A stretch of DNA of 64,000 nt, from assembly GCA_964601715.1 (NCBI GenBank), contig CAZROM010000002.1, positions 2,155 to 66,154 of the forward strand, read 5' to 3'. The notes below the pieces were generated by a model. It was not told the origin of the DNA and ran no database searches. It worked only from the letters and a program-made list of their open reading frames with translations. A program made the translations under genes and the position numbers. This document shows, piece after piece, positions 1,741-36,396 of the stretch. Every line of letters starts with the position of its first letter. Within the stretch, counting starts at the first letter, position 1. This DNA comes from an uncultured Candidatus Peribacteria bacterium. GTDB lineage: Bacteria > Patescibacteriota > Gracilibacteria > UBA1369 > 2-02-FULL-48-14.

Positions 1741-1749
<9 letters not shown>
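1712..1749 (+). other. 5' arm of the 23S precursor processing stem
   Basis: About 34 of 38 nt are complementary to 4699-4735 (attgccataaaagt...tagaaga...gacgtt...acaacat). Confidence 0.8.
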
Positions 1750-4698
<2,949 letters not shown>

Positions 4699-4709
<11 letters not shown>

Positions 4710-4735
4710 GTCTTCTTCTAGACTTTTATGGCAAT
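4699..4735 (+). other. 3' arm of the 23S precursor processing stem
   Basis: Complementary to 1712-1749. Confidence 0.8.
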
Positions 4736-4820
4736 TCGAGAGAGTAATGCTATAATCTGGAGAGATCAAACTTTATATAGAAACGCTTCGAGTTTTCCAG
4801 AAACTTTGAAAAGCGATTTG

Positions 4821-4938
4821 GTCCAGGCAATTTTAGAGAGAAGGTCACACCTGTTCCCATTCCGAACACAGTAGTTAAGCTTCTCATCGCCGATAGTACT
4901 GCAACCTGAGTTGTGGGAGTGTAGGACGTTGCCTGGAC
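4821..4938 (+). rRNA. rrf: 5S ribosomal RNA
   Basis: Helix I is GTCCAGGCAA/TTGCCTGGAC. The conserved core CCTGTTCCCATTCCGAACACAG...GCCGATAGTACTG is present. Length is 118 nt. Confidence 0.95.
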
Positions 4939-11467: not shown

Positions 11468-13045
11468 ATGCTCAATTCTCTCAAAGCAAAATTTGTCCTC
11501 GCGTTTGGAACATTGATTCTGGTTCTGTTCACTGTTTTGGGCTTGTTTTTGGTGGATGCGAAAACTCAAGAACTTTCTCTCGACATTGCCGACAGCACGC
11601 AAAGTTTTGCTCAGCTCACTTCTGAAAAATTTGTAGAAAGTTATGAGCAATATCTCAAACCCGGAAACTATTTGGCCTTCAGTCGTGAGGCTTCTGCCTT
11701 GCTGCGTCAAAATTCTTCCATCTCGGATTTCAAGATGTCGACCTATGGCGGCGTTGTACTTTTCATCTCTTCTGAAGAACAGACTGCTCGATACACAGGA
11801 ATGCTTCGCACCCTGACAAATCCCACGGAAGTGGAACGTTCTCAGGCCAACAAAACCTCTTTGCTTCTGAGTGATGGACGAGTTGTGTACATGAAAATCG
11901 ACGAGCAGAAACAAATTTCTTACGTGAATTTCAATGAGAATCCTGTGGCTGCGCCCGTGGCAGCCGATCGAATCGTGGACATTGTGGTTCCTGTGAACAA
12001 CGCTTATGCGCTCAAATACTCCGTGAGTTATCAACTGATGGAGGAGCGTCTCGCGGCGGCCAAACTCCAAATTGGAATCATTGCTTTGGTCGGCATGGTG
12101 CTGACTTTACTTTTGTCTTACATGCTTTCGGTGAGTGTGACCAATCCTCTCAAAGCGCTTAAGGAAGGCGCCATGAAGCTAGCGACAGGTGACTTCACCA
12201 CTCGAGTCATTGTTAAAACCAAGGATGAAGTGGGTCTTTTGGCCAGCACCTTCAATCAAATGGCCAAGGATTTGTCTGCTGCTCTTGAAATTCGTTTGTA
12301 CAAAGAACGTGTCACCAAAGAACTGGAATTGGCTGCGAAAATTCAAGCGGATCTGCTTCCGAAAGAACGAGTTCAATTGCCCACTTTGGATTTGGCGGGC
12401 GGACTTGATCCAGCCACTGAAATTGGAGGAGACGCGTTCGACTTCATTCCCACCGCATCCGGTGAAACCATTGTGTACTTGGGAGATGTGAGCGGGCACG
12501 GCGTGCCTGCTGGAATCTTATCCTCAATTGTGAATGGACTTTTGTACACGCTTCGTGACGAAACCGATTTGAAAAAGTTGGCACTGCGAATCAATGAAGT
12601 CATCCAAAAGAAATCTTCCAGCAACATGTTCATGAGCATGGGTCTCACACGTTGGAACCCAACGACGGGCGTGCTCAGTTATTTAAACGCAGGGCATCTT
12701 CCACTTTTGCATTACAGCGCAAAAGATAAGAAAGTGAATGAAATCAAATTGCCCGGAATTGCGTTCGGAATGGCGGATGATGTGACGAACTTACTCCAAG
12801 TTCTCGAGCTCAAACTCGATGCTGGCGATGTGATCGTTTTGTATTCCGACGGTTTCCCCGAAGCGCAAGATTTGCATCACGAACAGTATGGAATGCAACG
12901 ACTTCGCCGCATCGTGCAACAAGCCGGCGACGATTTGCTCACAGCGGAAGGCATCAAAAATGCAGTCTTTTCGGACGTGCTTCAATTCATCGACAAACAA
13001 GATCACCTCGACGACATCACGATTGTGGTGATGAAGAGGAAATAA
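11468..13045 (+). CDS. Membrane sensor with HAMP domain and PP2C/SpoIIE-type serine phosphatase domain (RsbU-like)
   Basis: TM1, a ~170-aa extracytoplasmic region, then TM2. The HAMP domain reads NPLKALKEGAMKLATGDFTTRV...DEVGLLASTFNQMAKDL. The PP2C domain reads AAKIQADLLP...EIGGDAFDF...VYLGDVSGHGVPAG...DGFPE...DDITIVV. An AGGAG Shine-Dalgarno sequence lies upstream. Confidence 0.85.
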   Translation: MLNSLKAKFVLAFGTLILVLFTVLGLFLVDAKTQELSLDIADSTQSFAQLTSEKFVESYEQYLKPGNYLAFSREASALLRQNSSISDFKMSTYGGVVLFISSEEQTARYTGMLRTLTNPTEVERSQANKTSLLLSDGRVVYMKIDEQKQISYVNFNENPVAAPVAADRIVDIVVPVNNAYALKYSVSYQLMEERLAAAKLQIGIIALVGMVLTLLLSYMLSVSVTNPLKALKEGAMKLATGDFTTRVIVKTKDEVGLLASTFNQMAKDLSAALEIRLYKERVTKELELAAKIQADLLPKERVQLPTLDLAGGLDPATEIGGDAFDFIPTASGETIVYLGDVSGHGVPAGILSSIVNGLLYTLRDETDLKKLALRINEVIQKKSSSNMFMSMGLTRWNPTTGVLSYLNAGHLPLLHYSAKDKKVNEIKLPGIAFGMADDVTNLLQVLELKLDAGDVIVLYSDGFPEAQDLHHEQYGMQRLRRIVQQAGDDLLTAEGIKNAVFSDVLQFIDKQDHLDDITIVVMKRK

Positions 13046-13109
13046 AAAAGGAAATCCCTCAGCGCTCCGGGCCGCTAGGCCGAGTCTTACTTTCGGGATT
13101 TCCTTTTTT
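13045..13109. terminator. Long-loop hairpin terminator between convergent genes
   Basis: The 14-bp stem AAAAAGGAAATCCC (13045-13058) / GGGATTTCCTTTTT (13095-13108) encloses a 36-nt loop. A T-run follows on the plus strand and an A-run corresponds to it on the minus strand. Confidence 0.7.
13059..13094 (+). repeat. Conserved 36-nt loop element, copy 1
   Basis: TCAGCGCTCCGGGCCGCTAGGCCGAGTCTTACTTTC is 33/36 identical to the reverse complement of 19005-19040. Confidence 0.85.
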
Positions 13110-13129
13110 ATTTCCTAAGTTCGAAGAAT

Positions 13130-14377
13130 TTAGCTTTCAATTCCAGGTACAGGGAATCCTTTGCAGAGTTCCTTCACTTCGCCTTGGACTTTGCTTTGAA
13201 CGGAAGCGTCGCTTGCGTTTGAAACGACTTCGTCGATCCAGCCTGCGAGGATTTTCATTTGGTCTTCCTTCATGCCACGAGTGGTGATCGCTGGAGTTCC
13301 CATACGGATTCCAGAAGGATCGAAAGGGGAGCGAGTGTCGAAAGGAACCATGTTCTTGTTGCAGGAGATTCCGGCGAGTTCCAAAGCTTTTTCAGCGTCT
13401 TTTCCAGGGACGCCCTTGCTCGCCATGGTGTCGATGAGCATGAGGTGGTTGTCGGTTCCGTTGGAAACGATTTTGAATCCGCGAGCCATGAGCTCGGCAG
13501 CGAGCACTTTGGCGTTGGCGATGACTTGGCGGCTGTATTCTTTGAATTCAGGCTTGAGCGCTTCTGCAAACGCAACGGCTTTGGCCGCATTGATGTGGTC
13601 GTGAGGTCCGCCTTGCATTCCAGGGAACACGGCTTTGTCGATGGCTTTGGCATACGCTTCTTTGCACATGATCATGGCGCCACGAGGTCCACGCAAAGTT
13701 TTGTGAGTTGTGGTGCTGACGATGTCAAAGTAAGGTACTGGATTTTCGAGTTGCCCCCCTGCGATGAGCCCAGCGATGTGAGCGATGTCGGCAAAAGTGA
13801 TGGCTCCAATCTTGTCTGCGATTTCTTTGAAACGTTTCCAGTCCATGCTGCGTGAGTAAGCGGAGAATCCAGCCACAATCATTTTTGGTTTTTCACGAAG
13901 CGCGATTTCTTCTACTTTATCCATGTCGATGATTCCGTTTTCTTCCACTCCGTAACGAACGAAGTCGTAGAGCATTCCGCTGAAGTTCACGGGGTGACCG
14001 TGGGAGAGGTGTCCTCCGTGATCCAAACTGAGTCCGAGCACTTTGTCACCGGGTTTGATGGTGGCGAAGTACACGGCTGCGTTGGCTGGGGATCCGGAGA
14101 GAGGTTGAACGTTCACGTGTTCGGCTCCAAACAATTCTTTAGCGCGATCGATGGCAAGAGTCTCGACGGTGTCGATGTTCACTTGTCCGGCGTAGTAACG
14201 CTTTCCTACATATCCTTCGGAATATTTGTTGGTCAAAATGGTTCCCATGGCTTCGAGCACGGCTGGGGAAACATAGTTTTCGGAAGCGATCAGTTCGAGT
14301 TCTTCGGATTGACGCTTGGACTCCGCCATGATGGCGTTGTAGATTGCGGGATCCTGAGCTTGGAGCTTGGGAAGCAT
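13130..14377 (-). CDS. glyA: Serine hydroxymethyltransferase
   Basis: [28 protein letters not shown] and the PLP-lysine block [12 protein letters not shown] are present. Confidence 0.97.
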
Positions 14378-18473: not shown

Positions 18474-18968
18474 ATGGTTCCGCTGGGCACGCCGGCTCCT
18501 GATTTTGATCTGCTCGGAATCGATGGAGAGCGTCACACTTTGGCCGATTACGCTCGTGCGAAGGTTTTGGTGGTGGTGTTCATGTGCAACCATTGCCCTT
18601 ATGTGCAGAAGATTTGGGACGATTTGGTGGCTTTGGATAAGGCTTCTTCGGCCGAAGTTCAGTTCGTGGGCATCAACCCCAATGGAGGGAATCCCGCTTA
18701 TCCCGAAGATGCATTTGATAAAATGAAGGAGTACGCGGCGCAAAAAAGTCAGGAATTCCCTTATTTGTTGGATGAGAATCAGGAGGCGGGCCGTGCTTTT
18801 GAAGCAGAATGCACGCCTGACTTCTTTGTCTATGACGAAGCAAGGGCGCTCGCTTATCGCGGCGCTTTTGAAGGTCTCGGCTCAGCGATTGACGCTCTTT
18901 TGAAAGGACAAGCGCCCGCTCAAAATCAAAGCCATTCGATGGGCTGCTCTATAAAATGGGCTGTTTAA
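18474..18968 (+). CDS. Thioredoxin-fold protein (TlpA/AhpC-TSA-like)
   Basis: GTPAPDFDL..IDGERHTL...KVLVVVFMCNHCPYV contains a CxxC motif. The ATG at 18474 lies one nt after the upstream stop. Confidence 0.8.
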   Translation: MVPLGTPAPDFDLLGIDGERHTLADYARAKVLVVVFMCNHCPYVQKIWDDLVALDKASSAEVQFVGINPNGGNPAYPEDAFDKMKEYAAQKSQEFPYLLDENQEAGRAFEAECTPDFFVYDEARALAYRGAFEGLGSAIDALLKGQAPAQNQSHSMGCSIKWAV

Positions 18969-18981
18969 GGTTAAAACCCTC

Positions 18982-19065
18982 AAAACATTTAAAAAGATTT
19001 CTTCGCAAGTGAGACTTGGCCTAGCGGCCCGGAGCGCTGAGAAGAAATCTTTTTAAAATGTTTTT
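18982..19065. terminator. Long-loop hairpin terminator between convergent genes
   Basis: AAAACATTTAAAAAGATTTCTTC (18982-19004) pairs with GAAGAAATCTTTTTAAAATGTTTT (19041-19064) with a one-nt bulge. The loop is 36 nt. Confidence 0.65.
19005..19040 (-). repeat. Conserved 36-nt loop element, copy 2 (inverted relative to copy 1)
   Basis: The reverse complement, TCAGCGCTCCGGGCCGCTAGGCCAAGTCTCACTTGC, is 33/36 identical to 13059-13094. Confidence 0.85.
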
Positions 19066-19088
19066 GCCTTAGAAGCTTCTGTTTAACC

Positions 19089-20165
19089 TTAAACAAGTCT
19101 CGTTAAGGTGTATTTATCGCGTCCCACGCGAGCGAATTGATTCTTGTTTTTGAGGTTCAAGTAGATGGTGATGGTCTTCACGTGTCGTTGATCGAGCACG
19201 GCTTTGGTGATTTCTTCACGGCTGCGAGCCACTCCATCCGATAGGATTTCGGTGATCACATCGGCGACGGTACCTGTTTTGTAGCCCCATTCTTTGAGGG
19301 CGTAGATTCCACGTCCGATCAGAATGAAGTTTTCGTTGCGGATGAGTTCGTTGTGCACGGCTTGTACGTTCACGCGTTTGGAGTCGAAGTCCGATTCTCG
19401 AATGAGGAGCGCCAACTTTTCGAAGTGAAGAGGTTTCTTTTCTCGGTTCAAAACGAAGGCGATCTTGTCTTTGAGCGTGCGAGGATTGATGTGTCTCCAG
19501 CTGTAGAGTCCCACTCCTTGATCGGTGAGTTTGTACTCTTTTACGATGCGGAGAATGTTGGTGATTTGGTTCACCGTCAGATCACTTTCAACGGCTTCGT
19601 TGATCTTTTCAGCCAATTTATCCACGGGCAGAACGTGCTTGTTCTTGCTGAGGAATTTGATCCCTGCGTTGCCGGCTTTGCTCACAAAAGCTTCGTTGAA
19701 GCGAGCGGTTCTCCAGTAAGGATTGGTTTTGAGGGTGTTGGATTCGAAGTGGATGTCGCTGTCTAAAGAAAGGGCGAGGTGCAAATCTTGAATTTCTTGA
19801 GCGCTGATGTTTGGCAAAATCTTGAGGAGCAGTTCTTTGAAGTGTTCGTCGGAAGCGATTCCGCCTTCTTTTTCGAGGAGAGCCTTGGAGAATTCGCTGA
19901 GGATTTTAAGATTGGTGTTTTGGGCGTTGCGTTCCAATTTGCGGAGCGCGGTCTTTTCGATTTGACGCACACGTTCGCGGGTGACCCCGAAGTGCTGTCC
20001 AATTTCCTCAAGCGTTTGCTTTTCGGTGGTTTCCAGCGCAAAGCGGTTCTTGATGATGTACTTTTCTTTGTCGGAAAGAACGATCAAGAGATTTTCCACC
20101 AAGTCATGCAATTTGATGTCTTGGGGTGAAAGCTTGCGATCGAACGTGAAGTTCGTGTTAACCAT
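19089..20165 (-). CDS. Sigma-70 region-4 HTH protein with C-terminal HARE-HTH-like domains
   Basis: LSDKEKYIIKNRFALETTEKQTLEEIGQHFGVTRERVRQIEKTALRKL is a region-4 motif. The C-terminal blocks LIGRGIYALKEWGY and FARVGRDKYTL resemble HARE-HTH / RNAP delta-like folds. Confidence 0.6.
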   Translation of the reverse strand: MVNTNFTFDRKLSPQDIKLHDLVENLLIVLSDKEKYIIKNRFALETTEKQTLEEIGQHFGVTRERVRQIEKTALRKLERNAQNTNLKILSEFSKALLEKEGGIASDEHFKELLLKILPNISAQEIQDLHLALSLDSDIHFESNTLKTNPYWRTARFNEAFVSKAGNAGIKFLSKNKHVLPVDKLAEKINEAVESDLTVNQITNILRIVKEYKLTDQGVGLYSWRHINPRTLKDKIAFVLNREKKPLHFEKLALLIRESDFDSKRVNVQAVHNELIRNENFILIGRGIYALKEWGYKTGTVADVITEILSDGVARSREEITKAVLDQRHVKTITIYLNLKNKNQFARVGRDKYTLTRLV

Positions 20166-31102: not shown

Positions 31103-33148
31103 ATGCTCGACTATCGACTCGATTCCAAAATTCTGAAAACGCGCGATGCTTATATCCTGAAGCTCAAGGATATGGGCGTGAAGACGTTGGCGGATTTGCT
31201 GACGTATTTTCCGAGGGCGTATCGAGATGAACAGGAGTTCACCAAGATCAATGAAATGCGAACGGATGAGGTGAATGTGATTCAGGCCAAGATCAAATCC
31301 ATCCTCAATGTGCCCACGCGGGCTGGGGGAGTGGTGACGCGTGCGGTGGTGGCGGACGACACAGGTGAACTGCCGGTGATGTGGTTCAATCAACGTCACT
31401 TAAAACAGATGTTTTTTAAGGGAAGCGACATCGTTTTGACAGGGAAAATCAAGTTCGAAAAGGGGAGGAGCATGATGATGAGTCCCAAGTACGAAAAACC
31501 TTCGACGGTGCTGCTGCACACGGGGCGCATTGTGCCGGTGTATCCAGAAAGTGAGGAAATCACGTCGAAATGGCTTAGGGAAAAGATTTATAGCGTGTTG
31601 CCCTATGCAAAATTCTTCGACGAATATTTGCCTTTTTGGGTCTTGCAAGGGGAGGGGCTCTTACCTTATAGCGAGGCGATTTATCACGCGCATTTTGCAA
31701 AAGACGAAGATTTTTTAAACAAAGCGCGCGAACGCTTGGCGTTTGATGAACTGTTCATGCTGCAGTTCATGGCGCTGCGTCGCAAAAAATGGTGGCAAGA
31801 AGGGTTTTCGGGCGAGAAAAAGCAACTGAGCCCCGAACTTGACATGGATCCTTTTTATTTGGCTTTGCCTTTTGAACTCACGGGCGCGCAAAAGCGCACG
31901 ATTGGTGAGATTTTTGATGACTTGAGGCGAGATTTCCCGATGTTGCGCTTGGTTCAAGGAGACGTGGGCTCGGGTAAAACGGCGGTGGCGGCTGCGGCCA
32001 TTTTTGCGATGGTGAAGTCGGGTTATCAGTGTGTGCTCATGGCGCCGACGGAAATCTTGGCTCGTCAGCACTACAAGAATTTGACAGAGCTGCTCACTCG
32101 TTTTGGATTCAATGTTCAACTGATGACGGGTTCGATGACGGCTGGCGAGCACAGCGCCGTGGCCATGCAACTGGCTACGGGAACCTGCGACGTGGTGATT
32201 GGTACGCACGCCTTGATTCAAGAAGGAATCACTTTTCCTAAATTGGGTCTGGTGGTGATCGACGAGCAGCACCGCTTTGGAGTGAAGCAGCGCGCCAAAC
32301 TCAAGGCTCAGGGATTTCCGCACTTGCTCAATTTGTCGGCCACACCGATTCCTCGCACCATGGCGCTAACGATTTATGGCGATCAGGATTTGTCGATCCT
32401 CGATGAACTGCCTCCCGGACGCACGCCGATCGTGACGCGACTGGTGCCGGAAGCCAAACGAGGCGATGCCGAATTCTGGGTCTCGGATCAAGTGACCAAA
32501 GGACGACAAGTGTTTGTGGTGTGTCCGCTCATCGAAGAGTCCGATGCGGTGCAGGTTAAAGCGGCGACCATGGAGTTTGAACGGCTTTCGAAAGACGTCT
32601 TCCCGCAACATCGACTCGCACTCTTGCATGGAAAAATGAAGGCCGACGACAAGGACACCGTGATGCAGGCTTTTTCGCAAGGCACCGTGGACATTCTCGT
32701 TTCAACGTCCGTCGTGGAAGTCGGAATCGATGTGCCGAATGCGTCCATCATGATGATTGAAGGCGCGGATCGATTTGGCTTGGCTCAATTGCATCAATTT
32801 CGGGGGAGAGTCGGGCGAGGTGCGCACCAGTCCTATTGCTTCTTGTTTACAGATTCAAACACGGACCAAGCCTTGCAAAGATTGAAATTTATGGTACAGT
32901 TTAATTCTGGCTTCGATTTGGCTGAAAAAGACCTCGAACTCAGAGGTCCCGGAGAAATCTACGGCGTGAAACAAAGTGGAATTCCGGACCTGCGCATGGC
33001 AAGTTTCAGCAACAAAGAACTTTTGGATCGTGTTCGAGCCTGCGCACAGCGTCTTGTGGACGAAGATCCCAATTTGAGCGGCTATCCAGCACTCGCACAG
33101 AAAATCCTCAAATTAGAGTCCCAAATGGAAGTCACAGACGCAGCTTAA
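31103..33148 (+). CDS. recG: ATP-dependent DNA helicase RecG
   Basis: Walker A is GDVGSGKT and the DEQH box is VIDEQHRFGV. LSATPIPRT and QLHQFRGRVGRG are also present. The start was set at the ATG at 31103. Confidence 0.95.
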   Translation: MLDYRLDSKILKTRDAYILKLKDMGVKTLADLLTYFPRAYRDEQEFTKINEMRTDEVNVIQAKIKSILNVPTRAGGVVTRAVVADDTGELPVMWFNQRHLKQMFFKGSDIVLTGKIKFEKGRSMMMSPKYEKPSTVLLHTGRIVPVYPESEEITSKWLREKIYSVLPYAKFFDEYLPFWVLQGEGLLPYSEAIYHAHFAKDEDFLNKARERLAFDELFMLQFMALRRKKWWQEGFSGEKKQLSPELDMDPFYLALPFELTGAQKRTIGEIFDDLRRDFPMLRLVQGDVGSGKTAVAAAAIFAMVKSGYQCVLMAPTEILARQHYKNLTELLTRFGFNVQLMTGSMTAGEHSAVAMQLATGTCDVVIGTHALIQEGITFPKLGLVVIDEQHRFGVKQRAKLKAQGFPHLLNLSATPIPRTMALTIYGDQDLSILDELPPGRTPIVTRLVPEAKRGDAEFWVSDQVTKGRQVFVVCPLIEESDAVQVKAATMEFERLSKDVFPQHRLALLHGKMKADDKDTVMQAFSQGTVDILVSTSVVEVGIDVPNASIMMIEGADRFGLAQLHQFRGRVGRGAHQSYCFLFTDSNTDQALQRLKFMVQFNSGFDLAEKDLELRGPGEIYGVKQSGIPDLRMASFSNKELLDRVRACAQRLVDEDPNLSGYPALAQKILKLESQMEVTDAA

Positions 33149-33186
33149 GTTGTTTTTAAAAATTTATCACGTTATAGCGCATTTTT

Positions 33187-33381
33187 ATGGGATGTGATTT
33201 AGGACACGATGATGATGAGCATCTACTAAATAATCCGGATGACATCAATAATAATGAGGAATGTTGGCGGATTGCTAATGGAGATGAACGGTTAGACGAT
33301 ATCTGCTCTACAAGAGAGCAGGTCGCGAGGGCTTTAGCTGCTCTTACTGATTTTATACGAACCTTCTTAACTAAGGAGTAA
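33187..33381 (+). CDS. Small, very acidic ORF (64 aa), uncertain
   Basis: ATG-initiated ORF in an AT-rich spacer, followed by the hairpin CGCACAA-GATACA-TTGTGCG (33385-33404). An ORF of similar length exists on the opposite strand. Confidence 0.3.
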   Translation: MGCDLGHDDDEHLLNNPDDINNNEECWRIANGDERLDDICSTREQVARALAALTDFIRTFLTKE

Positions 33382-33444
33382 CTTCGCACAAGATACATTG
33401 TGCGGGATTATTAATCATTCTAATCTGGTGATCGATCAGCTCCC

Positions 33445-36396
33445 CTACTTGGCGGGTGTTTCTTCCGGGTCTTCTGCAAGGGGCAAATCGATTTCAATGG
33501 GCTCTTGATCTTTCGTATCGAATATGAGTTCGTAACCCAGTTTGCCCACTTCAACAGCGGTGACTCCGACCATCCCCTTCCCTGCGACGTTCTTCATCAC
33601 ACGTAAAAGTTCTTGGTATCCACCGAGTGCTTTGGCTAGACCTTGTACTTCTGGAACAATGGCTTTGGCTGCGGCGATCACTTCAGGGCCTTTACCTGCA
33701 GCTCGAAGGGCGCCTTCAATAGTATTTGAAGTTCCGTAAATAGCAGCGCCTCCTGCGCCACCCACTTCAACTGTCGCACCTCCACCAATAGCTGCTAAAG
33801 CGTCGCTTCCCAAATTGTAGGCGCCAAAGACTACACGTGTTAGTCGATTCCATGTTCCTGCCTCTTTTCCCGTGAATAATTCTTTTCCGGTTGCGACGGT
33901 GTACCAGTCGGAAGCTCCAAATGGAGACAGTACGTCAGCAATGATTTGGAGTACATCCCAACCGAATTCTTTACCCCAGTCGTAGACTTTTCCAGCTGCA
34001 TAGGCTTCTTTTTGTTCATCACTACATTCAAGATATTCAAGCCCAATAGCGGCTGTTCCGAATATGATTTGTAATTTTCCTGTAGATCGTTCTCCCATTT
34101 CTCTTAAGATTCCTCGGACCCCACTTGCGTGTGCCATTTCTGTTTTGAGCAATCCTTTGAGTGCGGTTTGTTCTTCTTTGCTGAGCTCTTTAGAATGAGT
34201 TTTTAGGTCTTCGAATATACTCTTGTAACGAGTTCTTACTTCTTCGAGGTGCGCTCGAGTTTCTTGTGTAAGTGCATCAATCTCTGTTTGAGGTTTTCCG
34301 TCTCGAGTCATTTGCTCTACCTTTTCTTGGAAAGATTTCATGTAGGCATCACTTTCTTCTACACTCTTGCGAAGGGCTTCAATTTTCCCCATGTTGGGCT
34401 GAGCTTCAATGGCATCGGGTGCTAATCGGGCCTTGGTTTCGTCTAAGGAATTCATTTGAGGTGCTCTTGGATTTACTTCGTCTTGGAAGGCGTGGATGAA
34501 TTCTTTTATGTCTTCACGATGTTCTCTGAAGTCACGAAGATCATATGGAAATTTTGGATTTTTAACGCCTTTTGCCCTCTGATAATCCTCCCAACTTTTA
34601 CCGAATTCTACGAAGTGGAATTTCTCCATTCGTTCAAAATGCTCGGGCTCCAGAGTGTTGAGACGTACGAGATGTGCATCGGTTAATCGCCCTTTTTCTA
34701 CTCGTTGCACTCGATCGAAGTATTTTTCGTATTCTTTAATGTGCCTAAGGGCTTGATCTTTGGCTCGTGTTATTTTGACGTCTTGGGTCCGGAATAGACT
34801 TCCTAGTTTTTCTCCTTCATTTTGAGCCTGGGCCATTCTGTAGTCTGCCTCCGTGAGGACTTTTGCCAAACCTTTTTCACCCGCTTTGACCATTTTTATG
34901 GAATTCCAGATGGCACCTACGGGGCCGAGGAGTGCTCCTCTCAATCCTCCTATTGTAAGCCCTCTCGTGATGCTTTCTCCTTTCCATAAGGCCGCCATGG
35001 TTCCCATTGCCATTCCTGTTCCCATGAACCATACCCCCCCGTTTTCGTACCAACTGATTCCTCCTTCGACAACGTTTTTGGCAGCGCCATGGAAATCCCC
35101 TCTTCCCGCATTGTAAACGAATAAACCAGCGTGTTTGAATTCGTCTGCTAGAATGGTTCCAGAAGAAACAAGAATCCCTGTCGCTCCTTTTGCGATGAAG
35201 GTCCCCCATTCAGTTTGAACAAGAGTGGCGCCGTCTTTAAGAGCTCCTTCGGTAAGAATCACAGCAGCTTCTTCTTTGCTTTCGGCATCTTTTGCTCGCT
35301 TGAATGCCTCTGCGGTTGCGGGCAATTCTCCTTTTGCCTTTTCGGGATCATCGGTAATGGTTAGGTCGCCATTTTCTGGGCTCTTATCGTCGCCTTCTTC
35401 TGTTTTTTCTCCTTTTTCACCGACTTGTTCGTGAGCTTTAAGAGCTAGGAATTTTTGAAAAATTTCTCCGATGGTGAGCTTTTCGAGTTCTTTGTCGGAG
35501 ATTTTAAGTTCGGCTTTGTGAGCTTCGATGTAGTCGGCGATTTTATCTTCTTCGGCCACACGTTTGAGTTCGTCATCCACATTGGTAAATGGGATGTCTT
35601 CCACTTGGACGCCTGCCCATTCAAGCCCTTTGGTGAGGTAGCTTTTTTTGCGGTCTTTGGCGCGTTGTTCTTTAAAGTGGTTGTACCCTACCGTTTGAAG
35701 TTCGGCGAGGTGGCGTTTTTCGATATCGAGTTCGTCGGAAAAATATTCAATGGTTGGATTGTCGGTGTCGTAAACGAGTTGTTCGTAAGCCTCTTTAAGA
35801 TGATCTGGCCCTTTTTTCAAGGTTTCAAAGAACTTCTTCAAGCTTCCGTTATTGATAGTGAAGTCGAAAGCCTTTTGAATCCATTCAAAAAACGTGCCTC
35901 TAAAAACAAATCCTGTGGCGCCGAGCAGTCCGAGCCCCCAGCCCCATGGAAAATCTTTCACTTTTTCTACAAAGTCCTTTCCTTTTTCAATGAGTCCTTT
36001 GTCTTCTTTTTCCTCGTCGGTTTTCCCCTCTCCTTTATCTTTTTCTGTGGTGTCATCTGTAAATAGGGACTCTGCCCATTTGGTCATTTTGTAGGCACCG
36101 ATGGCTCCGATTCCACCTGCTGCCAGGTAAGCTGTGAGGGTCATCCAGCTGAACTCTTTGGGATTTTCTCCTTTTTCCATTCGTTCTCGCATTTTTTCTC
36201 CTTCCTTGCTTCGAAGATACGCATCGACTCTCTCCCCAAAACTATTATTTCTTTGGTGAATATCTAAAGAAAGATCCGCACGTGCTTGAGCTGGTGTTTT
36301 TTCTCTTTCGAGTTGGCTTTCATTACCCGTTTCAAGAGTGTTTTGTGATCCTTGTGGAAGTCTGGCGTTCATTGAAGAGGTTTTAAATCTCTTCAT
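33445..36396 (-). CDS. Large (983 aa) multi-pass membrane / coiled-coil protein with a PT-TG-like motif near the C-terminus
   Basis: Several Gly/Ala-rich hydrophobic segments and long charged coiled-coil stretches are present. LSPFGASDWYTVATGKELFTGKEAGTWNRLTRVVFG (nt 33823-33930) resembles the pre-toxin TG domain. The tail is Gly-zipper-like (GGGATVEVGGAGGAAIYG). Confidence 0.6.
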   Translation of the reverse strand: MKRFKTSSMNARLPQGSQNTLETGNESQLEREKTPAQARADLSLDIHQRNNSFGERVDAYLRSKEGEKMRERMEKGENPKEFSWMTLTAYLAAGGIGAIGAYKMTKWAESLFTDDTTEKDKGEGKTDEEKEDKGLIEKGKDFVEKVKDFPWGWGLGLLGATGFVFRGTFFEWIQKAFDFTINNGSLKKFFETLKKGPDHLKEAYEQLVYDTDNPTIEYFSDELDIEKRHLAELQTVGYNHFKEQRAKDRKKSYLTKGLEWAGVQVEDIPFTNVDDELKRVAEEDKIADYIEAHKAELKISDKELEKLTIGEIFQKFLALKAHEQVGEKGEKTEEGDDKSPENGDLTITDDPEKAKGELPATAEAFKRAKDAESKEEAAVILTEGALKDGATLVQTEWGTFIAKGATGILVSSGTILADEFKHAGLFVYNAGRGDFHGAAKNVVEGGISWYENGGVWFMGTGMAMGTMAALWKGESITRGLTIGGLRGALLGPVGAIWNSIKMVKAGEKGLAKVLTEADYRMAQAQNEGEKLGSLFRTQDVKITRAKDQALRHIKEYEKYFDRVQRVEKGRLTDAHLVRLNTLEPEHFERMEKFHFVEFGKSWEDYQRAKGVKNPKFPYDLRDFREHREDIKEFIHAFQDEVNPRAPQMNSLDETKARLAPDAIEAQPNMGKIEALRKSVEESDAYMKSFQEKVEQMTRDGKPQTEIDALTQETRAHLEEVRTRYKSIFEDLKTHSKELSKEEQTALKGLLKTEMAHASGVRGILREMGERSTGKLQIIFGTAAIGLEYLECSDEQKEAYAAGKVYDWGKEFGWDVLQIIADVLSPFGASDWYTVATGKELFTGKEAGTWNRLTRVVFGAYNLGSDALAAIGGGATVEVGGAGGAAIYGTSNTIEGALRAAGKGPEVIAAAKAIVPEVQGLAKALGGYQELLRVMKNVAGKGMVGVTAVEVGKLGYELIFDTKDQEPIEIDLPLAEDPEETPAK

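Follow-up and report, generated by a model that had tools for sequence, protein, structure and literature searches.

The window, a 64-kb stretch of DNA from contig CAZROM010000002.1, holds two copies of a hairpin element, one between the gene of a SpoIIE/PP2C sensor phosphatase and glyA, the other between an AhpC/TSA-redoxin gene and the gene of a sigma70 region-4 protein. The two copies enclose a common unit of 36 nt, which contains a 29-nt core, the apex. The element apparently belongs to a dispersed hairpin family which is specific to Patescibacteria and has not been described before. Hairpin tips acquire, lose or swap this apex; copies survive at two kinds of place only, shortly past a stop codon or, in frame, within a tolerant protein loop, where they appear to be translated; and pairing is kept on one strand whatever the direction of transcription. 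In what follows, the M strand is the strand written in an earlier note on this DNA, and the R strand is its complement, 5'-GUAAGACUUGGCCUAGCGGCCCGGAGCGC-3'. The features of the two sites are:

11468–13045, + strand: HAMP and SpoIIE (PP2C) sensor phosphatase gene; its 3' end lies inside the 5' arm of copy 1
13037–13049, + strand: outer 5' arm of copy 1, AGGAAATAAAAAA; also present in the apex-less relatives L113/L117 (alignment)
13037–13116, − strand (the R strand is −): copy 1 of the hairpin element; 22-bp arms and 36-nt top; 71.2 bits on the − strand
13059–13094, − strand: 36-nt unit of copy 1, common to both window copies; core plus lineage-specific GAAA/UGA closing nucleotides
13062–13090, − strand: 29-nt apex core of copy 1, nearly invariant family-wide; the R strand reads 5'-GUAAGACUCGGCCUAGCGGCCCGGAGCGC-3'
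13130–14377, − strand: glyA (SHMT), facing the SpoIIE gene in convergent orientation; shares 93% identity with its counterpart in Peregrinibacteria CP064962.1
18453–18968, + strand: AhpC/TSA-redoxin gene, ending upstream of copy 2
18963–18977, + strand: outermost inverted repeat around copy 2, GTTTAAGGTTAAAAC, which includes the AhpC stop codon (18966–18968); read directly from the sequence
18982–19064, + strand (the R strand is +): copy 2 of the hairpin element; 23/24-nt arms and 36-nt top; 66.1 bits on the + strand
19009–19037, + strand: 29-nt apex core of copy 2, GUGAGACUUGGCCUAGCGGCCCGGAGCGC
19081–19094, + strand: partner of the outermost repeat, GTTTAACCTTAAAC, which includes the sigma-r4 stop codon (complement of 19089–19091); read directly from the sequence
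19089–20165, − strand: sigma70 region-4 protein gene (sigma-r4), convergent with the AhpC gene

The arms of copy 1 (13037–13058 and 13095–13116 in + strand coordinates) are 22 bp long, and the 5' arm includes the stop codon of the SpoIIE/PP2C gene (13043–13045); the earlier note had located this stem correctly but had made it 14 bp long. The loop of copy 1 (13059–13094) reads TCAGCGCTCCGGGCCGCTAGGCCGAGTCTTACTTTC. In copy 2, the arms (18982–19004 and 19041–19064) enclose a loop (19005–19040) which has the opposite orientation and which is identical to that of copy 1 at 33 of the 36 positions, with three differences. An additional pairing of 13–14 bp around copy 2 (18963–18977 with 19081–19094) takes in both convergent stop codons. 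The two hairpins are therefore where the earlier note had placed them, and its description of a conserved interior with unrelated stems, the inverse of the architecture of miniature inverted-repeat transposable elements (MITEs) and repetitive extragenic palindromic (REP) elements, is correct. Its remark that both copies have the same polarity relative to the gene ending upstream is uninformative, because both sites lie between convergent genes and each copy therefore has both polarities.

One 23-mer taken from the loop has two exact matches in the window, compared to none in 100 shuffled sequences. Copy 1 folds at −42 to −43.5 kcal/mol, with z of about −6.6 to −6.9, and copy 2 at −33 to −35 kcal/mol, with z of −4.3 to −5.1; on either strand, each hairpin is much more stable than shuffled sequence. 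With a covariance model derived from 106 members of the family, copies 1 and 2 are the only ones recovered in the 64 kb (71.2 and 66.1 bits, respectively); the next match in the window, on the opposite strand of copy 1, scores 18.3 bits. Runs of A and T are present at the two hairpins, but the T run belongs to the stem and the loop is 36 nt long. A scan with the consensus of intrinsic terminators, which considers loops of 3–8 nt only, makes no call at these hairpins, and simple promoter and terminator scans were uninformative there. The two hairpins probably serve as two-way terminators or insulators between convergent genes; this role would then come from the stem and not from the apex, and relatives do without these hairpins.

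The exact core 20-mer GCGCTCCGGGCCGCTAGGCC was searched in one genome per prokaryotic species. It occurs in at least 110 loci, and every named record among the matches listed belongs to Patescibacteria (Saccharibacteria, Paceibacterota/Parcubacteria, including Kaiser-, Adler- and Nomurabacteria, and Minisyncoccia). Single assemblies hold at least three to five copies. These copy numbers are lower bounds and the taxon labels are taken from record titles; outside the cases validated with Pfam or BLAST, gene calls are open reading frame (ORF) heuristics. The covariance model detects about six more copies in 700 kb of flanking DNA from candidate phyla radiation (CPR) bacteria, which corresponds to about one per 100 kb, and a metagenome scan for the UGA variant of the window gives only three loci. 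The element is not a local feature; it is spread across Patescibacteria. Neither of the refuting outcomes that the earlier note had named, a local duplication with no further copies or a match to a known repeat or vector, was found: many copies exist in other genomes, and there is no phage, plasmid, viral or Rfam match.

In detail, the element was not found in IMG/VR or in phage and plasmid collections. No Rfam 15 family matches the window or 24 of the loci at gathering or permissive thresholds (E ≤ 5–10); the sole overlapping matches are weak generic microRNA hairpins (22–29 bits, compared to gathering scores of 60–79). The Rfam 15 families covered, none of which matched, presumably include the LOOT motif of OD1/OP11/TM7. 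Full-text searches of the literature by topic and by sequence string gave no description of the element. Several contigs stop inside it (at the end of L111, at the end of L054, and at the start of L072 and the end of L088), and one assembly has a copy split over two of its contigs; short-read assemblies seem to break at the hairpin or repeat. Independent assemblies from many studies carry the element.

The element is about 77–80 nt long, with arms of about 24 bp and a 29-nt GC-rich apex which is nearly invariant across CPR classes. The statistics for arms and apex are based on an alignment of 106 copies. In every copy the 20-mer extends as [A/G]AGTC-YNAC and is flanked by long inverted arms. 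The arms show strong covariation: all of the 24 pairs have changes on both sides, with 971 such cells compared to 344 in shuffles, and 84.6% of the arm cells are paired, compared to 35–53% when the partners are slid. RNAalifold predicts a long helix, apex closing pairs G1-C29 and U2.G28, a short middle helix, and a GGCC/GGCC apical stem with a UAGC loop. One diverged copy has a compensatory GGGC/GCCC change in the apical stem, two represent a second apex subtype and two others have extra hairpins inside the apex.

The arms are not uniform. Their inner 10 bp or so recur between loci (mean best identity of 0.86), whereas the outer arm (about 13 bp, positions 12–24) is locus-specific yet paired, with an identity of 0.74 compared to 0.67–0.69 in flanking controls. 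Outside the hairpin the alignment shows no conservation in the flanks, and neither direct repeats nor a consensus at the bases of the hairpins. The core contains the palindromes GCGC, CCGG, GGCC (twice) and CTAG. On the M strand it ends with YNAC, mostly TTAC, and on the R strand it begins with GUAAG or GUAGG. TTAC resembles the target tetranucleotide of IS608, and the start of the R strand loosely resembles the 5' GTAG of REP elements.

The mismatches in the arms distinguish the two strands. On the M strand most of them (229 of 288) are A:C, C:T and C:C, and A:C is found 109 times compared to 20 for G:T; on the R strand the same mismatches become G.U, G.A and G.G, which are tolerated non-canonical pairs. 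The ratio of R- to M-favouring mismatches is 46:3, 90:10 and 68:4 at arm positions 1–8, 9–16 and 17–24, and the bias vanishes past position 25 (25:18), which gives a unit of about 24 + 29 + 24 nt. The commonest apex variant allows a U9-G24 pair on the R strand only. The R hairpin is the more stable one in 100 of the 106 copies with RNA parameters (median difference of 5.7 kcal/mol) and in 89 of the 106 with DNA parameters. The strand which is structurally selected is therefore the complement of the one that the earlier note had written.

This bias does not depend on transcription: it is seen in 10 of 10 copies in genes read on the M strand and in 10 of 10 in genes read on the R strand. Because one strand is under structural selection whatever the direction of transcription, a signal in mRNA is disfavoured, and the element would rather work in the form of single-stranded DNA or through an RNA of its own. 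Of 91 loci, 64 have the R strand as the C-rich one (p = 1.3e-4), a count which is confounded with gene direction. A strict orientation relative to the replication strand was considered and rejected, on account of this confounding and of the two window copies, which are opposed on a uniformly G-skewed strand.

The median distance between an intergenic copy and the stop codon of its neighbouring gene(s) is 7–9 nt, and the arrangements are convergent or tandem; between tandem genes, the two orientations are found in the ratio 23:14. About one fifth to one quarter of the sampled copies are in frame within protein genes; the element is not specific to terminators. At least 20 copies lie inside conserved, validated genes and are read through in frame, 10 on the M strand and 10 on the R strand. 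The host genes encode ValRS, ArgRS, IF-2, MiaA, IscS, PrmC, TruB, RarA/MgsA, an FtsJ-type methyltransferase and an O-antigen-ligase-like protein. The apex has four stop-free frames (ALRAARPSL, RSGPLGQV, VRLGLAARS and KTWPSGPER), all of which are used; every intragenic copy found sits in one of them and keeps the downstream frame. None of the host genes of these copies was found split across frames, which suggests that the insert is translated and not removed. Most of the identified host genes (ValRS, ArgRS, IF-2, MiaA, TruB, PrmC, FtsJ and IscS) function in translation or in tRNA/rRNA modification; this may reflect only which genes are recognisable.

The same protein loop is filled in several species, often in another orientation or phase (four times in PrmC, three times in RarA and many times in MiaA and IscS). 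A flip of the 29-nt apex in place leaves the frame open only for the pair VRLGLAARS/ALRAARPSL, and precisely this pair is present in PrmC, in TruB and in the ligase-like protein. Orthologues of only about 61–64% identity (PrmC; also TruB and RarA) carry intact copies at matching sites.

Comparisons between relatives show that the element comes and goes. The stop codons of the sigma-r4 and AhpC genes are 7 nt apart in CP064962.1, compared to 120 nt in the window, and those of glyA and the SpoIIE gene are 4 nt apart in a relative with 81% glyA identity, compared to 84 nt in the window. In the closest relatives, L117 and L113 (glyA 96–98% identical), the hairpin that follows the SpoIIE gene has exactly the outer stem of copy 1, AAATAAAAAAG/CTTTTTTATTT, but its inner stem differs and its 29-nt loop is unrelated. 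An existing hairpin has therefore had its top exchanged. The unrelated loop is not repeated within the fetched loci. When the copies L009 and L099 are compared to the orthologous copy L028, the closing pairs differ and the outer stem covaries.

The ValRS gene illustrates the intragenic case. Filled ValRS (L037 and L047) is only 10–12 amino acids longer than empty ValRS (L092 and L090); its flanks are at their native positions, and the downstream flank is complementary to the upstream one. In L001, a perfect palindrome of 17 bp, which has a 3-nt loop but no apex, lies in the ValRS ORF (4204–4240), in the same protein loop that holds the apex in L037 and L047, and this gene is as long as its orthologue in L092, which has no hairpin. 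Hairpins without the apex therefore arise or persist within genes. The fetched loci (917 kb) contain 81 perfect hairpins (stem of at least 14 bp, loop of at most 50 nt), compared to one in shuffled sequence; 48 of the 81 do not have this apex, and about nine of the 45 that were checked may lie in ORFs. A different structured loop of 39 nt, on 14-bp stems, is common to L010 (3208–3274) and L051 (5864–5930); its sequence is AAGACATTG..AATGTCT + CCGACTCG..CGAGTCGG. This suggests that other families of hairpin tips exist in CPR genomes.

The sites which were first taken for decayed copies in the IscS gene of L036, the IF-2 gene of L102 and a spacer of L112 were rejected: their similarity to the core is 17–23, compared to 18.9 ± 2.5 in shuffles. 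The IscS and IF-2 sites do hold inverted repeats without the apex. A model in which the apex enters together with an inverted duplicate of one native flank (net gain of 51–54 nt) fits IscS and MiaA loosely and does not fit ValRS (+30/+36 nt) or the window sites (about +80 and +113 nt).

A link to Y1 (HUH) transposases was rejected, since such genes occur in only two of 119 loci and both are of the IS200 type. They lie in L112, from a close relative of the window organism (1897–2331, − strand), and in L082 (3992–4342, + strand), and neither adjoins a copy of the element. Among the fetched loci, these two score 124–126 bits as IS200/IS605 TnpA, and 23–26 bits as RAYT, for which the cut-off is 80.

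With regard to the rest of the window, the 93% identity of its glyA to that of CP064962.1 points to a Peregrinibacteria-like CPR bacterium as the host. The 3' junction of glyA varies among L112–L119, where the neighbour is an SLH-domain gene, other ORFs or a directly convergent SpoIIE gene; this junction is a local rearrangement hotspot among close relatives. The 23S and 5S rRNA genes are found at 1744–4937 (+ strand), with no 16S gene in the window. Two tRNA genes lie just upstream on the opposite strand (831–1002, − strand), and a long hairpin (1556–1622) precedes the 23S gene. The GC skew of the + strand is about +0.05 to +0.13 throughout, except at 32001–36000 (−0.015).

The best explanation of these observations, to which we give an even chance of being right, is a dispersed hairpin family specific to Patescibacteria, which behaves as a selfish or enzyme-recognised cassette at hairpin tips and acts as single-stranded nucleic acid. 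The apex on the R strand would be recognised by a conserved trans-acting CPR factor, and the element would spread as a selfish cassette. A dedicated enzyme, for example an HUH-type single-strand transposase, could be responsible. Alternatively, replication could switch templates at the A-rich/T-rich inner stems, and fold-back copying would then write the locus-specific outer stem. Among the three ideas that the earlier note had put forward, an insertion which targets terminator loops fits best, given the outer stem that carries another top in L117/L113 and the empty sites of 4–7 nt; the specificity for terminators is the part that has to be abandoned. A bolder version, which we regard as tentative, holds that a tip module of about 30–50 nt homes to hairpin tips or nucleates them, that the stem is written locally by fold-back copying, that a strand-specific factor common to the superphylum maintains it and that loops of essential translation proteins are remodelled, by a mechanism unlike those of known mobile elements.

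Several points weigh against the selfish tip cassette. No mobilising gene was identified: the window contains no IS200/IS605 TnpA gene, and such genes occur in only two of the 119 loci. Neither a target-site duplication nor a clean insertion junction is seen between two nearly identical genomes. Template switching followed by fold-back copying would explain why the inner stems recur and the outer stems are local, but this is an inference only. Sequence does not separate an RNA form from a single-stranded DNA form. Sampling with an exact 20-mer imposes conservation at those 20 positions by construction, and only five diverged copies were recovered. Lastly, the invariance of the apex across classes, together with intact same-site copies in orthologues of about 61–64% identity, looks more like purifying selection by the host than like decaying selfish DNA.

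This last point is the strength of the main competitor, a binding module which benefits the host. A conserved CPR protein would recognise the apex where a hairpin or cruciform presents it at its tip, with a possible role in termination, protection of RNA 3' ends or chromosome organisation, and its dispersal would be secondary. This reading, a serious competitor although less probable than the cassette, accounts for an apex that does not vary between classes and stays intact at the same site in distant orthologues, for the compensatory arm changes at orthologous loci (L009/L028/L099 and the PrmC quartet) and for the position of copies 7–9 nt from stop codons; a conserved loop on variable stems is also typical of protein-binding hairpins. 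It sits badly with an orientation which is random relative to transcription (10:10 in genes, 23:14 between tandem genes), with relatives that do without the element at the same junctions, with copies that interrupt essential proteins and with the lack of a consistently adjacent gene class. The same independence from transcription disfavours a binding module acting in mRNA, which the earlier note had considered, and leaves protein binding to DNA, or to an RNA of the element's own, as the possible forms of that idea.

The other alternatives are much less probable. That the copies are the 3' ends of small RNAs or of RNAs derived from 3' untranslated regions, the apex being a seed or a chaperone-binding site, was also among the ideas of the earlier note. 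The stable hairpin, the flanking U runs and the position at gene ends in the window agree with it, and the strand-specific structure could reflect an RNA, but no promoter or 5' part is conserved outside the hairpin, no Rfam family matches, and many copies lie inside ORFs in either orientation, independently of transcription; we consider it improbable. A signal for DNA uptake or self-recognition by the competence machinery of CPR bacteria is slightly more improbable still. The element is phylum-wide, lies in both orientations and sometimes occurs in genes and in terminator-like hairpins, features which the uptake sequences of Neisseria and Haemophilus share. Its density, with two copies in 64 kb and about six more in 700 kb of flanking DNA, is however far below that of known uptake sequences, of which there are hundreds to thousands per genome, and this led to the rejection of the uptake sequence as a candidate; the strand-specific pairing and the 24-bp arms would also have no role. 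It is very hard to defend an intervening sequence, that is a mini-intron, an insert excised by RNase III or a translational hop. The long hairpin would join the flanks, and hairpins within genes recall the mitochondrial byp elements and rRNA intervening sequences, but all in-gene copies use the four stop-free frames and keep the downstream one, no host gene is split and half of these copies are antisense to the favoured strand. Finally, chance, local duplication or an assembly or vector artefact is effectively refuted: several contigs do end within the element (L111, L054, L072/L088), but shuffling gives 0 matches in 100, phage and plasmid matches are lacking, and the element occurs in many independent assemblies, in frame in orthologous genes and with covariation.

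Whether the cassette is selfish or useful, its distribution matters for the biology of these bacteria. A large part of bacterial diversity belongs to Patescibacteria, whose genomes are very small and would be expected to hold little non-essential DNA; the element is an exception. A 29-nt sequence stays nearly constant across classes in which housekeeping proteins are only about 60% identical, and several copies are present per genome. A conserved activity specific to CPR bacteria should recognise the apex, either an enzyme acting on single-stranded hairpins or a DNA- or RNA-binding protein, and it can now be searched for. The element also marks CPR DNA at the sequence level, gives rise to contig breaks and accounts for some lineage-specific insertions in proteins. 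If the stems are written from local sequence, it would be a natural case in which template switching, in association with a mobile tip, creates palindromes.

Some hairpin systems resemble the element in part. The TIGR-Tas systems of CPR bacteria form tandem arrays by a tas gene, with loops in which box C/D motifs surround variable 8–12-nt spacers (PMC12045711; bioRxiv 10.64898/2026.09.09.750476). As in the element, their hairpins combine a structured loop with palindromic stems that vary, and they occur in the same organisms; a TIGR-Tas array was nevertheless rejected, as the copies are solitary and kilobases apart, the loop is invariant and has no boxC-9nt-boxD interval, and the neighbours are SpoIIE, SHMT, AhpC and sigma-r4. 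Integron attC sites were rejected because conservation is at the tip and not at the base, and because the copies are solitary with ordinary housekeeping neighbours. Iron-responsive elements also have a conserved apical loop or bulge, covarying stems and many unlinked copies, but they act in sense mRNA, whereas the orientation of the present element is independent of transcription and copies lie inside essential coding regions. Bacterial MITEs (Correia, ERIC, RUP and BOX) and rRNA intervening sequences are likewise short imperfect palindromes which can fold as RNA and can replace hairpin tips. A MITE was rejected, since the copies have no conserved terminal inverted repeats in common and neither a target-site duplication nor a linked transposase or parent insertion sequence was found, and the element differs from the rRNA intervening sequences excised by RNase III in that it is not in rRNA.

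Other analogues are mobile or presumed mobile repeats. The Rickettsia palindromic elements (RPEs) are short hairpin repeats in a reduced genome, have no known transposase and occur both between genes and in frame in housekeeping genes, where they are translated; the present element likewise inserts in frame and preserves the ORF. RPEs are conserved over their whole 100–150 bp and are confined to Rickettsia. By contrast, the present element recurs only in the 29 nt of its tip and some 10 bp of the inner stem, with a local outer stem; it uses four frames and both orientations, its tip is common to a superphylum, and the two have no sequence relationship. The REP elements and REPINs, with their RAYT (HUH Y1) transposases, and the IS200/IS605 elements offer strand-specific single-stranded hairpins just past stop codons and long-term persistence as intragenomic populations. 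REPs are strictly extragenic with conserved stems, unlike the present element, which has at least 20 copies inside genes and for which no RAYT gene was found in 119 loci. The mobile GC clusters and byp elements of yeast mitochondria are small GC-rich hairpins in AT-rich spacers which are occasionally in frame in genes and whose spread is possibly based on replication or conversion. They are organellar, belong to other sequence families and have neither long locus-specific stems nor strand-specific pairing. REP/REPIN, RPEs and GC clusters share the general logic of the present element, the architecture of which is inverted, with a conserved tip on a local stem.

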